Positions 11,261-23,531 of a stretch of 64,000 bases of DNA are shown piece by piece. Location of the stretch: the sequence record OZ336095.1. The stretch is one strand, 5' to 3'. Positions within the stretch are counted from its first letter, which is position 1. Each line of letters starts with the position of its first letter. Under the pieces are notes generated by a model that worked only from the letters and a program-made list of their open reading frames with translations, had not been told where the DNA came from and did not search any database. This DNA is from a phage. The position numbers and the translations under genes were made by a program.

Positions 11261-19276
<8,016 letters not shown>

Positions 19277-19278
19277 TA

Positions 19279-20451
19279 ATGGCAGTAGGTGAAATTCAAA
19301 TTAGTGCCTTGCCTCAAGCAGCTTTACCAATTGACCTTAGTGATATCTTCCATCTTAAGCAGGGTATTGAGGATAAGAGGTGTACTCTTGAGCAATTACT
19401 TGCTCCACACGCAAGCCTAAGAAATAACCCTCATGGTGTTACTAAAACACAAATTGGTTTAGATAATGTTATTAATGCTCTTCAGTTAGTCGCTGCAAAT
19501 AACTTATCAGATATTGTTAATGTAGCTGAGGCAAGAGCAAATCTACAGATTATGTCTTCAGAAGAGGTTAATAACCTTGTCCAGCAACATATCAAGGACA
19601 AGAGTAACCCACACAATACAACTAAGGCACAGGTTGGTTTAAGTAATGTTCAGAACTGGACAACATCTAATCTGTATAACGAAGATGCAGATAAGTATGC
19701 TACAGCAAGAGCAGTAAATAACTTGTACAAGGCTGTTCAGGCTTCTTATCCAGTAGGTACTATCCATCTTTCTATGAACTCTGCAAACCCTTCTACATAC
19801 TTAATTTGTGGAGGTACTTGGGAGTTAGTTTCAAAAGGCAGGGCATTGGTTGGCTATGACTCTGATACAAGACCAGCAGGTTCTGTATTTGGCGCTTCAA
19901 CTGTCACTTTGTCAGTTAATAACATGCCTCAACACTCCCACTCTGTGTCTCTTAGCGGTGGTGGTCACACTCATAATGCAACTGTGTCAATCTCAGCTTT
20001 TGATTATGGGGCTAAGACTACAAACTCTTTTGACTATGGGACAAAAGCTACTAACACAACTGGTAACCATACACACAGTGTGTCAGGTAACACAAGCACC
20101 AATGGTACTCACAACCATGATGTGTATCCTAGAGAAAATGATGGTACTGGTAATGCTGTAGCTGACTCTAATGGTGGTGGTGCAAGAAGGACATCAAGGA
20201 CTTCTAGTGACGGTGCGCACTCACACAGCTTTAACGTCACATCTGGTGCATCAGGTGACCACAGCCACACGGTTGGTATTGGTGCTCACAGCCATACAGT
20301 TGGTATTGGTTCACACACGCACAGTGGCACTGTAACAGTTTCTTCTTCTGAACATACACATAGTGGTAATACAAATAGTGTTGGTGGAGGTCAGGCGGTT
20401 AATATTGAGCAGCCATCCTTCGTACTGTATGTATGGCAGAGAACAGCTTAA
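19279..20451 (+). CDS. tail fibre protein with His-x-His repeat C-terminal domain
   Basis: 390 aa; N-terminal repeated 'NPH..TK.Q.GL.NV' motifs; C-terminal 'HSHSVS', 'GNHTHSVSG', 'DHSHTVGIGAHSHTVGIGSHTHSG' repeats typical of fibre tips. Confidence 0.65.
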   Translation: MAVGEIQISALPQAALPIDLSDIFHLKQGIEDKRCTLEQLLAPHASLRNNPHGVTKTQIGLDNVINALQLVAANNLSDIVNVAEARANLQIMSSEEVNNLVQQHIKDKSNPHNTTKAQVGLSNVQNWTTSNLYNEDADKYATARAVNNLYKAVQASYPVGTIHLSMNSANPSTYLICGGTWELVSKGRALVGYDSDTRPAGSVFGASTVTLSVNNMPQHSHSVSLSGGGHTHNATVSISAFDYGAKTTNSFDYGTKATNTTGNHTHSVSGNTSTNGTHNHDVYPRENDGTGNAVADSNGGGARRTSRTSSDGAHSHSFNVTSGASGDHSHTVGIGAHSHTVGIGSHTHSGTVTVSSSEHTHSGNTNSVGGGQAVNIEQPSFVLYVWQRTA

Positions 20452-20461
20452 TTTCTTTACA

Positions 20462-20481
20462 GGGGCTATAAAGCCCCTTTT
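20462..20481 (+). terminator. hairpin terminator between the two fibre genes
   Basis: GGGGCT ataa AGCCCC followed by TTTT. Confidence 0.5.
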
Positions 20482-20497
20482 AAGAGGAAAATATATA

Positions 20498-22852
20498 ATG
20501 GCAGATTACAAGTTGAGTGAATTAAACTCAATCGATACAATCCGTTCAGATGACCTTCTTCATGTCAGGGTTAAAAAGAGACCTGAAATGTTGGGTGATG
20601 AAGACCGTCGAATGACCTATCAAGATTTCTTAGCATCTTTTAAACTTGAAAGATTTGTTCAGATTGCTGGTAGCACTATGACGGGTGACTTAGGAATTGT
20701 TAAGCTACTTTACGGTGGCAAGGCTGTATTCGACCCTACAGGCTCTTCTGAGATTACTGTTGGGGATGTTTTAAAGACTTTTAAAATCAACGCAAACGGC
20801 CTTAAACTAACTATTGCAGACGCTTCAAGGTCGGCAACTGTTTATCATACTTTGAATAAGCCAAGCCCTAATGAACTTGGGATGAGAACTAATGAAGAGA
20901 ATGACGCAAGGTATGCAAGACTAGCCGTGAATAATACCTTTAGAGGTACTCAAGCTATCCTCTCTGACAATGAAGCGCTCATTATTAAAAATATCACTCA
21001 AGGTGCTCCACTCTATCTTCGTGGTCAAGATGCAGATGGTACTAACAGATGGTATCTAGGTAATGATAATAGGGGTACAAATAATCTTGTATTGAAGAAT
21101 GTAAAGTCTGACGTTTCAATTGCTATTTTAGAGAATTTGGTGACAGTCAACAGAACTCTTCAAATTGCTGGCCAAGTTCAGCCTTCAAGTTTTGCTAACT
21201 TAGATGCTAGGTATTTTACCCAGACAGCAGCTAATCAGAGATTTGCGCAGTTAGCTGGTAATAACACTTTTACTGGTACTAACACTTTCTCTAATTTTGT
21301 TGCTAAGAAGAATGCTGAAGCCATCACTCTGCAAAATGTGGACACTGCTCCCTCTTTATATATCCGAGCAAGAAAGTCAGATGGGAATTATAAGTGGTAC
21401 ATTGGTAATGACGGTGATGAGAACATTTTAAAAATCTATAACTATCTAACAAAAACACAAGTCTCACTAGGTAACACTATTGCCATGAGCAAAACAGTTC
21501 AAATTGATGGTCAAGTACAACCTTCTGATTGGACTAACATTGATTCTAGATATATTCCGGCAGCCACTTTGAGTAATCTCCCTAAACTTAATGTGTCTAA
21601 TACTTTCACAAATGTGCAAACTATTGTATCTAACAACGAGGGTTTGGTATTAAGGAACTTGACACAGGGGCAGCCACTATATATCCGTGGTGTTGATACT
21701 GAGAATGTTTCTAGATGGTGGTTAGGTGTAGGTGGTCCAAACTCTAATGTGGTAACACTTAACAACAACTATTCTGACACTAAAATCTCACTTGGTGGCT
21801 CATCAGTAATGACTAATAAGAGCTTAGCTATTACTGGTCAAGTACAACCTTCTGACTTCTCTAACTTAGATGCTAGATACTATACCCAAGCTGCCGCAAA
21901 CGCAAGATATATGCTTGCAAGCATCACTGGTTCGGCTTCTGAAGCAGATGGTGGTGATGGTGTTGCATGGGATGCAAAAACAGGTCTTTATAAGGTTACT
22001 AACACCACTGGACAGTCTTCTTCACTTGTATATCACATGTTTTTAGGGACTAGTTCTACACCATCTGCACAATTAAAGTTTTCGTTTAAAAATGGTGGGA
22101 TGTGGTATAGAACATCAAGAGATGCCTATGGCTTCGAAGTTAATTGGTCTAAAGTTTACACGGAAGCACAAAAACCAACCCCTTCAGAGATTGGTGCATA
22201 CACTAAAGCTGAAACTGACCAGAAAATTGCAACAGCAATTAGTGACTCTACAGACCTTAACAAAATCTATCCAGTTGGTATTGTAACGTGGTTTAACAGT
22301 AATGTTAACCCTAATACAGCACTCCCTGGTCTAACTTGGACGTACCTGAATAATGGTGTTGGTAGAACTATCAGAATCGCAGCAGCAAACGGTTCAGATG
22401 TTGCTACAACTGGTGGTTCAGATTCTGTGACATTAGCTGTTGGTAACTTACCATCACACACTCACAGTTTCTCTGCTACCACTTCATCTTTTGATTATGG
22501 TACGAAGAACACTAACAGTACTGGTGCACATACCCATTCAGTTAGTGGTACTGCTGCATCTGCTGGGCAACACGCACACAGAATTTCACAGGGTGACAAC
22601 GCTAACGTTTCATCAGGTAGAGTCGCATCTTCAAACTCTGCTCAGACCCATGTTGGTTGGACTGAAAATGATGGTGTTCACACCCACTCAGTTAGTGGTA
22701 CTGCTGCATCTGCTGGTGGACATGCTCACACGGTTGGTATTGGTGCTCACAGCCACACAGTTAGTGGTAACACTGGTGGTACAGGTTCTGGTTCAGCATT
22801 TAGTGTTACTAACCAGTTCTACAAGTTAATGGCTTGGGTAAGAACTGCTTAA
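20498..22852 (+). CDS. long tail fibre protein with three internal ~100-aa repeats and His-x-His C-terminal domain
   Basis: ATG 20498 with RBS AAGAGGA (track ORF extends upstream through the terminator); three repeats each ending '..GQVQPS.F.NLDARY.TQ.AAN'; C-terminal 'PSHTHSFS', 'GAHTHSVSG', 'GGHAHTVGIGAHSHTVSG'. Confidence 0.65.
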   Translation: MADYKLSELNSIDTIRSDDLLHVRVKKRPEMLGDEDRRMTYQDFLASFKLERFVQIAGSTMTGDLGIVKLLYGGKAVFDPTGSSEITVGDVLKTFKINANGLKLTIADASRSATVYHTLNKPSPNELGMRTNEENDARYARLAVNNTFRGTQAILSDNEALIIKNITQGAPLYLRGQDADGTNRWYLGNDNRGTNNLVLKNVKSDVSIAILENLVTVNRTLQIAGQVQPSSFANLDARYFTQTAANQRFAQLAGNNTFTGTNTFSNFVAKKNAEAITLQNVDTAPSLYIRARKSDGNYKWYIGNDGDENILKIYNYLTKTQVSLGNTIAMSKTVQIDGQVQPSDWTNIDSRYIPAATLSNLPKLNVSNTFTNVQTIVSNNEGLVLRNLTQGQPLYIRGVDTENVSRWWLGVGGPNSNVVTLNNNYSDTKISLGGSSVMTNKSLAITGQVQPSDFSNLDARYYTQAAANARYMLASITGSASEADGGDGVAWDAKTGLYKVTNTTGQSSSLVYHMFLGTSSTPSAQLKFSFKNGGMWYRTSRDAYGFEVNWSKVYTEAQKPTPSEIGAYTKAETDQKIATAISDSTDLNKIYPVGIVTWFNSNVNPNTALPGLTWTYLNNGVGRTIRIAAANGSDVATTGGSDSVTLAVGNLPSHTHSFSATTSSFDYGTKNTNSTGAHTHSVSGTAASAGQHAHRISQGDNANVSSGRVASSNSAQTHVGWTENDGVHTHSVSGTAASAGGHAHTVGIGAHSHTVSGNTGGTGSGSAFSVTNQFYKLMAWVRTA

Positions 22853-22931: not shown

Positions 22932-23129
22932 ATGCCTACAATCCTAGCAATTCTTCTAAAAAATCTAGGTAGCTTCTTCTGGAAACTCATTTTATCCCTT
23001 CTGAGTGAATACATGATTGAGAAAGTGTTCTTTAAGCTTGCAAGATATCTTGCGAGTAAAACAGACACACCTATTGATGATGAGTTCGTAGATAACTTAG
23101 AAAAAGCTTTTAAGGGGGAGAATAAATGA
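22932..23129 (+). CDS. small hydrophobic protein (membrane, function unknown)
   Basis: 65-aa ORF with hydrophobic N-terminus; RBS GAGGTG. Confidence 0.3.
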   Translation: MPTILAILLKNLGSFFWKLILSLLSEYMIEKVFFKLARYLASKTDTPIDDEFVDNLEKAFKGENK

Positions 23130-23497
23130 AGTGGCTAGAGGATGCTTTTAAAAATAATATTGGTGCAATTGTAGTTGGTATTTTTAGTGTTATTGGGATG
23201 TATACCACGATGCAAGTTTCAAGTGGTAAGCAAGAAGTGTCTGTCACAACGAAGTTACAGCAGCTAGATAATTACACCAAAAGTAACTATTCAGCTATTC
23301 GTGATTTACAGTCTGACATGAGACTTATTCAGTTAGGGATGGAGAATCAGAAAGTTCAGTTAGAGAATGTTAAGGGTGAGAATGCAAAACTTACCAAAAC
23401 TCTTGATAAGTTCTCTGACAGTGTAAATAATCTGGCTCAATCAGTATCAGCCCTCCAAGCTATTACTGAGAAGAACACAAAAAGTACTGAAAAATAA
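23126..23497 (+). CDS. membrane-anchored coiled-coil protein (function unknown)
   Basis: 123 aa; N-terminal hydrophobic segment 'IGAIVVGIFSVIGMY' followed by Q/L/N-rich coiled-coil-like region. Confidence 0.35.
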   Translation: MKWLEDAFKNNIGAIVVGIFSVIGMYTTMQVSSGKQEVSVTTKLQQLDNYTKSNYSAIRDLQSDMRLIQLGMENQKVQLENVKGENAKLTKTLDKFSDSVNNLAQSVSALQAITEKNTKSTEK

Positions 23498-23503
23498 AGT
23501 TTA

Positions 23504-23531
23504 AGGCTCCCGTAAAAAGGAGCCTTTTTTG
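23504..23531. terminator. hairpin terminator between convergent gene blocks
   Basis: GGCTCC cgtaaaaa GGAGCC followed by TTTTTTG on + strand; sits between + strand stop 23497 and - strand stop 23535. Confidence 0.6.

Follow-up and report, generated by a model that had tools for sequence, protein, structure and literature searches.

The window analyzed here is a stretch of 64,000 nucleotides (nt) of phage DNA (sequence record OZ336095.1) that carries, on its + strand, two adjacent tail-fibre genes whose products both end in a module studded with His-x-His (HxH) motifs. A preliminary description had quoted peptide strings from both products and taken the module for a duplicated or exchanged receptor-binding tip; all of the quoted strings are present, and both open reading frames (ORFs) exist on the + strand. 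The window is 97.8% identical in nucleotide sequence to the Escherichia phages vB_EcoM_ULIM8/ULIM3 and 97.6% identical to VpaE1_ev108, and its DNA is matched by 241 phage records, mostly named Escherichia or Salmonella phages or Felixounavirus, which identifies its source, as judged from sequence, as a Felix O1-like myophage of the genus Felixounavirus. The fibre pair occupies the Felixounavirus position, after the wedge protein 1 and long tail fibre (LTF) platform genes and before two small ORFs and thyA. Further, the order baseplate genes, short tail fibre (STF), LTF, two small ORFs, and thyA (on the opposite strand) is common to Felix O1a (FO1a), VpaE1, HY02, JH2, humlepung, SUSP2, and Moogle. 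We accordingly designate fibre 1 as the STF, the predicted orthologue of Bas63 gp26, VpaE1 gp74, and FO1a gp75, and fibre 2 as the LTF, the predicted orthologue of Bas63 gp27, VpaE1 gp75, and FO1a gp76; the assignment to Bas63 gp26/gp27 draws on synteny and on the two upstream genes, which match PDB 9NDY, not on the fibre sequences. The features of the locus are collected in the table.

Table. Features of the tail-fibre locus, in window positions; aa, amino acids; needle strand directions are predicted
Feature	Position	Strand	Evidence or remark
Wedge protein 1 gene	18117-18971		Matches Bas63 gp24 chain, PDB 9NDY, E = 9e-181
LTF platform gene	18974-19273		Matches Bas63 gp25 chain, PDB 9NDY, E = 3e-64
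STF gene, 390 aa (fibre 1)	19279-20451	+	phrog_2097 tail fiber, full-length, E = 5.5e-137; synteny
STF collar domain, aa 146-215	19714-19923	+	
STF ascending needle strand, HxH at aa 219, 230, 264, 278	19924-20118	+	
STF block A (FDYGTKATNTTGNHTHSVSG), 5' flank of swappable head cassette	20029-20088	+	
STF head, aa 281-313, predicted distal receptor-contact element	20119-20217	+	Aligns to T4 gp37 tip subdomain
STF descending needle strand, HxH at aa 314, 328, 337, 346, 359	20218-20373	+	
STF block B (HTVGIGAHSHTV), 3' flank of head cassette	20266-20301	+	
STF C-terminal strand returning to collar, ends ...YVWQRTA	20374-20448	+	92% conserved; aligns with T4 gp37 ...YIVRLA
Intergenic hairpin plus U-run, terminator-like	20461-20481	+	AGGGGC-UAUAAA-GCCCCU, then UUUU
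LTF ribosome-binding site AAGAGG	20482-20487	+	3' of the intergenic hairpin
LTF gene, 784 aa (fibre 2)	20498-22852	+	phrog_4277 tail fiber, full-length, 1330 bits; synteny
LTF shaft, three ~110-aa repeat domains, aa 141-474	20918-21919	+	Pfam gp37_trimer, three stretches, E = 1.8e-60
LTF Mu tail-fibre-S-like domain, aa 480-585	21935-22252	+	PDB 8JU3, E = 3.6e-21; Pfam gp37_C, E = 8.3e-20
LTF collar domain, aa 586-650	22253-22447	+	Aligns with STF collar; 92-93% conserved
LTF ascending needle strand, HxH at aa 654, 678, 692; block A at 22490-22549	22448-22579	+	
LTF head, aa 695-727, predicted distal receptor-contact element	22580-22678	+	
LTF descending needle strand, HxH at aa 728, 742, 751; block B at 22727-22762	22679-22765	+	
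LTF C-terminal strand returning to collar, ends ...MAWVRTA	22766-22849	+	94-97% conserved
Small ORF, 65 aa	22932-23129	+	phrog_402
Small ORF, 123 aa	23126-23497	+	phrog_4038; hydrophobic N-terminus, weak coiled-coil-like Pfam hits

The STF contains nine HxH motifs and the LTF six; in either tip, all histidines but one belong to such motifs (18 of 19 in the STF, 12 of 13 in the LTF). Counts as high as these did not arise once in 20,000 composition-preserving shuffles (means, 1.5 for the STF and 0.8 for the LTF), and no comparable HxH cluster occurs in the other reading frames of the 64 kb. Among 120 family representatives, the count ranges from 5 to 11, with nine the commonest (49 proteins) and seven the next (44), and the suggestion that the STF has an unusually high number was therefore rejected. 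The two C-terminal modules (~200 aa) align in BLASTP, with compositional adjustment, at E = 2e-28 over 190 aa, their identity in a global alignment is 45%, and their local alignment score of 352 compares with 75 ± 11 for shuffles (z = 24.7). Two blocks had been described at the outset as near-identical between the fibres, and they are: FDYGTK.TN.TG.HTHSVSG (block A) agrees at 17 of 20 residues and HTVGIGAHSHTV (block B) at all 12. The N-terminal parts of the two fibres, on the other hand, show no significant similarity in BLASTP. The region is rich in Gly, Ser, Thr, and His and has short internal repeats, from which it might be argued that the resemblance is one of composition only, between low-complexity tails that lack a common fold; however, the compositionally adjusted E value, the distance of 24.7 standard deviations from the shuffles, the HxH counts that no shuffle reached, and the match of both tips, with motifs in register, to one solved structure (PDB 2XGF; see below) refute this explanation, and we attach practically no probability to it. 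Pairwise alignment at the protein and DNA levels thus shows the two tips to be homologous, far beyond any likeness of composition.

At the DNA level, the aligned codons of the two modules are 52% identical, and the same codon is used at 49 of the 85 identical residues. The longest exact match is 29 nt (20266 in the STF and 22727 in the LTF) and lies inside HTVGIGAHSH of block B. Moreover, the STF tip is 39% identical to T4 gp37 and 36% identical to its own LTF partner, being about as near to the one as to the other, which argues that the module is an old paralogue and not a recent copy. The 45% distal identity between STF and LTF in the window falls in the scaffold-only class of a bimodal intragenomic distribution, and the sequences that the innermost HxH motifs enclose (NHDVYPRENDGTGNAVADSNGGGARRTSRTSSDGAHSH for the STF, AHRISQGDNANVSSGRVASSNSAQTHVGWTENDGVHTH for the LTF) have nothing in common beyond the scaffold; the two heads show 30% identity even when one needle turn is included on each side. 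A recent duplication or gene conversion within the window genome, which would leave both fibres with the same receptor-binding tip, could account for the 29-nt match and the identical peptide blocks, and conversion of this kind does occur in the relatives UAB_Phi87, FO1a, and JH2. For the window, however, the DNA comparison refutes it, since an identity of only 52% leaves no room for a recent duplication, and the dissimilar heads and the scaffold-class identity point the same way; we rate it as very improbable. What holds of the module being duplicated or exchanged is that the tips are homologous paralogues; what does not hold is any recent copying of the whole tip, because the pair is old (45% at the protein and 52% at the DNA level), only the collar and needle scaffold is shared, and the heads are unrelated. 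The two fibres have in common a scaffold and recombination arms, and not a receptor-binding head, which refines the earlier reading.

Both C-termini match the solved tip of T4 gp37 in a phmmer search against PDB: STF aa 146-362 align with residues 18-228 of 2XGF (E = 1.4e-28), and LTF aa 648-763 align with residues 93-218 (E = 8.5e-14). When T4 gp37 is aligned with both window tips, the STF of FO1a, and the LTF of VpaE1, six of the seven T4 HxH motifs (H883/885, H915/917, H929/931, H966/968, H980/982, and H989/991) form invariant columns. The T4-type HxH tip proposed in the preliminary description is thereby supported for both fibres, and metal binding would follow from the homology. Within the STF, (i) the motifs at aa 219, 264, and 278 align with T4 H883/885, H915/917, and H929/931; (ii) those at 314, 328, 337, and 346 align with T4 H966, H980, H989, and H998, the last pairing in the HMMER alignment STF H346/348 with the seventh T4 motif, H998/1000; and (iii) the motif at 359 has no T4 counterpart. 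Relative to the LTF, the STF has paired insertions, one of 21 aa in the outgoing strand, which holds the motif at 230 and corresponds to a shorter insertion relative to T4, and one of 20 aa in the returning strand, which holds the motifs at 346 and 359, so that three HxH motifs are added.

These paired insertions are what the lengthening of a hairpin needle would require. The conservation profile across nine orthologues would fit the T4 hairpin as well, being V-shaped around the head in both fibres: the collar stands at ~90%, STF aa 281-300 and LTF aa 701-720 at only 27%, and the C-terminus again at 92-97%. The head, at 27%, is the least conserved part of the STF, and the LTF head is conserved to the same degree, while the N-terminal baseplate-binding parts are conserved at 88-99% (STF aa 1-200) and 87-97% (LTF aa 1-140). 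The STF collar also matches Pfam Gp10_C with 64.4 bits (cut-off, 27), in keeping with a collar of the gp10/gp11/gp12 fold.

Papers on marine phages reportedly raise a "Ferrojan horse" idea for HxH-bearing fibres, under which the arrays would mainly carry iron, either to bait host siderophore receptors or to sense metal, instead of riveting the structure. T4-type tips do hold several iron ions: in T4 gp37, seven irons are held along the needle by HxH motifs, H929/H931 being among the iron-binding residues (PMC6957217), and all seven T4 HxH positions would, in our own reading, be the seven iron sites. Against a carrier function, the T4 irons lie buried along the axis of the needle, and plaques no longer form when the histidines that bind iron are replaced by alanine, an effect that was read as a role in folding and structure (PMC6957217); further, the known receptors of the genus are lipopolysaccharide (LPS) structures and not siderophore transporters. 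An iron-carrying role as the main one therefore appears highly unlikely to us. In the same T4 protein, surface residues of the tip subdomain are essential along with the iron-binding histidines, and tip residues are required for receptor binding (PMC6957217).

Several observations weigh against a gp37-type tip on both fibres. An AlphaFold2 (AF2) monomer of the STF tip made from the two window sequences reached a predicted local distance difference test (pLDDT) score of 32 without secondary structure, and with a 70-sequence alignment, the mean rose to 69, with 84-89 in the collar, middling values in the needle, and 44-45 in the head. Foldseek found no PDB match for this monomer at E <= 0.001 and did not recover 2XGF. 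The LTF collar scores 25.8 bits against Pfam Gp10_C, just under the cut-off of 27, and the LTF has no counterpart of the seventh T4 motif, H998/H1000. T4 gp37 requires the chaperones gp38 and gp57A (PMC6957217), and among the immediate neighbors (ORFs 22932-23129 and 23126-23497 and, upstream, 18974-19276), none matches Tfa or gp38 in Pfam or PHROGs. Finally, the trimer state, the metal occupancy, and the hairpin topology are properties that we infer for the window proteins. The monomer prediction confirms the collar and neither confirms nor refutes the needle fold, on which it is probably silent because the needle would exist only as an intertwined trimer; we regard the sequence match to the solved structure as stronger evidence than the structure prediction.

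The preliminary description had further proposed that the module is a recombination hotspot for host range, and comparison of the module across related phages agrees with this. Mapped against nine relatives, DNA identity along the locus changes abruptly, in a mosaic pattern. Over the STF, the near-identity of ECML-1 and ev78 to the window extends to ~20070-20085, at block A, gives way to ~50% through the head, and resumes at ~20260, at block B. Over the LTF, the identity of ECML-1 and VpaE1 drops between ~22530 and ~22730, that of JH2 and humlepung does the same less sharply, and ev78 remains at 99-100% across the tip. Since identity switches at blocks A and B, the swappable unit is an HxH-head-HxH cassette of ~190 nt flanked by these two conserved blocks.

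The head type of one fibre assorts independently of that of the other. With a threshold of 70% identity, the head segments of 36 Ounavirinae loci sort into 18 clusters, of which several have a single member, and the head types of STF and LTF pair in varied combinations. The STF head of the window is found together with the window LTF head or with a T4-like head, and the window LTF head is found with the window STF head or with that of ECML-1. At an identity of at least 89%, the window STF cassette occurs only in E. coli Felixounavirus records, and the window LTF head occurs in 9 Felixounavirus records at an identity of at least 90%. Cassettes have also crossed between phage families: ST32, EcoM1, and TH53 (52-kb phiEcoM-GJ1-like phages) have cassettes that share 70-75% identity with that of the window LTF, and the distal needle and head of the VpaE1 LTF (L002 4454-5071) are ~90% identical to T4 gp37 (L012 3177-3902), the VpaE1 LTF carrying a T4-like cassette inside a Felixounavirus collar and C-terminus.

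In five genomes, the same head is present on both fibres (72-87% aa identity), namely in FO1a (L001 3066-6622), UAB_Phi87 (L027), JH2 (L005), and the loci L021 and L032. Four of the five carry a Felix O1-type head, and FO1a and UAB_Phi87, for which host information is known, are Salmonella phages. In UAB_Phi87, STF and LTF share a run of ~38 consecutive codons without a single nucleotide difference, a sign of recent exchange between its two fibre genes. The same-head genomes show that inter-fibre exchange happens in the genus; in the window genome, it has not been recent. Indeed, the window fibre genes share a single exact match of 29 nt, by which inter-fibre exchange is not evidenced in the window, and this, too, counts against the full explanation given below, of which the recombination mechanism and the identity of the receptor are parts that we infer. 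Whether blocks A and B act as portable recombination arms that move the cassette between phages, between phage families, and between both fibres of one genome, with a lineage toggling between two different heads and the same head twice, is a proposal for which we see the chances as evenly balanced. Tetart et al. (1996/1998) are said to have described a specificity segment of T-even gp37 that is flanked by conserved His-containing motifs mediating its exchange; no paper on such "His boxes" came up in our literature search. The window fibres conform to this pattern, with breakpoints at blocks A and B in both and with head types that recur across phage families.

Taken together, we consider it very probable that the locus encodes the STF and LTF of a Felix O1-like myophage, both with a T4 gp37-type tip whose head is swapped via the flanking blocks. 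Each fibre would be a homotrimer that attaches to the baseplate through its N-terminus and bears the receptor-binding tip at the other end. The tip would consist of a collar, a needle, and a small head at the turn, with the chains running out and back as six intertwined strands. At each site, the three chains would contribute one HxH motif apiece, giving six imidazoles that hold an axial metal ion (Fe2+ in T4), and the predicted metal sites, nine in the STF and six in the LTF, would rivet the needle. The head would determine receptor specificity, the receptors of the genus being LPS structures. FDYGTK..HTHSVSG and HTVGIGAHSHTV would act as homology arms through which the ~190-nt cassette is exchanged among phages, across phage families, and, within the genomes of certain relatives, from one fibre gene to the other.

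Because the STF and LTF heads of the window phage differ, its virion probably presents two specificities. The tips may instead be redundant, both binding the same LPS structure, with the STF merely securing irreversible binding and the difference between the heads having no effect on host range. Several Salmonella Felixounaviruses carry the same head on both fibres, so a single specificity is viable, and all of the reported receptors of the genus are LPS (PMC8594841; PMC4690856). The window heads are, however, alike at the scaffold level only, and each head type has its own phage distribution and varied partners; we therefore hold redundancy to be unlikely, if clearly less remote than the other alternatives considered above.

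Apart from the tip, the LTF has two further regions of interest. The DNA of its shaft includes copies of a repeat family (D1) at 21164, 21503, and 21830. The shaft repeats are mosaic across the genus, with cores that are ~50% identical between phages and linkers that are 80-90% identical; variability of the LTF repeats, there called unexpected, is likewise reported in the Bas63 paper (PMC12609058). The Mu tail-fibre-S-like domain that follows is the least conserved segment of the LTF across the genus (18-43%). It occurs as distinct alleles that are exchanged independently of the tip, and it could be a second, lateral binding site.

The longest-ORF call places the LTF start at a GTG at 20363, overlapping the STF gene by 89 nt. 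This start was rejected as an artefact of that rule; the real start is the ATG at 20498, behind the ribosome-binding site AAGAGG, on which all of the annotated relatives agree. In annotation, the LTF start should accordingly be moved to 20498, and the two genes should be named STF and LTF, each with a T4 gp37-type tip. The hairpin between the two genes has a predicted RNA folding energy of -16.4 kcal/mol (z = -2.6). In AYO145A, a terminator annotation lies under the match, and in Moogle, one follows the STF gene, there on the opposite strand; our terminator scan did not report the 20461-20481 hairpin, its U-run being too short for the rule used. The hairpin might lower LTF expression relative to that of the STF, and in Bas63, LTF occupancy is partial (PMC12609058).

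Downstream of the LTF gene, the 123-aa ORF at 23126-23497 is called a putative holin in some records. A hairpin at 23503-23526 reads as a terminator on both strands and stands where the structural genes of the + strand give way to thyA, DHFR, and other genes of the - strand, and the sign of the GC skew changes at this same point. Felixounavirus tail-fibre DNA, at ~89% identity, was also encountered in records named Staphylococcus phage SA1 (GU169904.1) and Campylobacter phage; these entries are most likely contaminated or mislabelled database records, rather than biology.

Among known systems, the more distant ones share single elements with the window fibres. Matches to T4 gp10 and gp11 span the collar only, so no HxH needle is shared with them, and T4 gp12 has a single metal site. 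Iron-loaded spikes of the P2 gpV and phi92 gp138 type also coordinate an axial iron by HxH motifs from three chains; they are nonetheless a different protein with a different fold and job (membrane puncture, as opposed to receptor binding), and have no sequence relationship to the window fibres. Bas63 itself has such a spike tip, with an HxH motif at H188/H190 (PMC12609058). The tail fibres of lambda (Stf) and of Enterobacterales prophages share the same HxH needle module, with 46% identity over the needle (tblastn and a protein search), but differ in their N-terminal shafts. In lambda, a Tfa chaperone gene lies downstream of Stf. The C-terminus of T4 gp37 has itself been reported to come from a lambda-like source (PMC3157838).

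T4 gp37 (2XGF) has the same order of collar, HxH needle, and head, and a comparable C-terminus (..IVRLA in T4, ..W.RTA in the window). It differs in three respects: (i) the nine HxH motifs of the STF comprise seven that are in register with T4 plus one extra per strand on the collar side, and the LTF has six; (ii) the window heads are unrelated to the T4 head; and (iii) the window has no adjacent gp38-type chaperone gene.

The closest parallels come from the genus itself. Bas63 (JohannRWettstein; gp26/gp27, PDB 9NDY) has the same order of wedge 1, LTF platform, STF, and LTF, and its cryo-electron microscopy study describes STF and LTF as both ending in a gp37-like tip made up of collar, HxH needle, and head, and names the tips and the LTF beta-helix repeats as the variable parts of the genus (PMC12609058). 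Its STF differs in having seven HxH motifs, its LTF having six plus an HHxH (PMC12609058), whereas the nine of the window STF are the commoner state in our sample. The word "recombination" is absent from the Bas63 paper (PMC12609058), and neither the cassette boundaries nor the sharing of a head within one genome was found in the available parts of the Bas63, VpaE1, and Felix O1 papers. For the direct orthologues, VpaE1 gp74/gp75 and Felix O1 gp76/gp77, the respective papers report C-termini of gp74 and gp75 that are similar to T4 gp37, with the LPS core as the receptor, in VpaE1 (PMC4690856), and C-termini of both fibres that resemble T4 gp37 in the Felix O1 genome (PMC3185647). The window STF tip is 96% identical to that of VpaE1 gp74; the VpaE1 LTF differs in its T4-gp37-like head (~90%), the window LTF having another head, and Felix O1a differs in having a single head type on both fibres.

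In summary, the feature had already been described for Felixounavirus fibres, its essentials having been published for Bas63 (2025), VpaE1 (2015), and Felix O1 (2010), and the current understanding of phage host recognition is unchanged by it. For phage engineering, the comparison offers natural cut points for retargeting, at ~20085-20260 in the STF and ~22530-22730 in the LTF, between conserved flanking blocks that tolerate the heads of T4 and of phiEcoM-GJ1-like phages.

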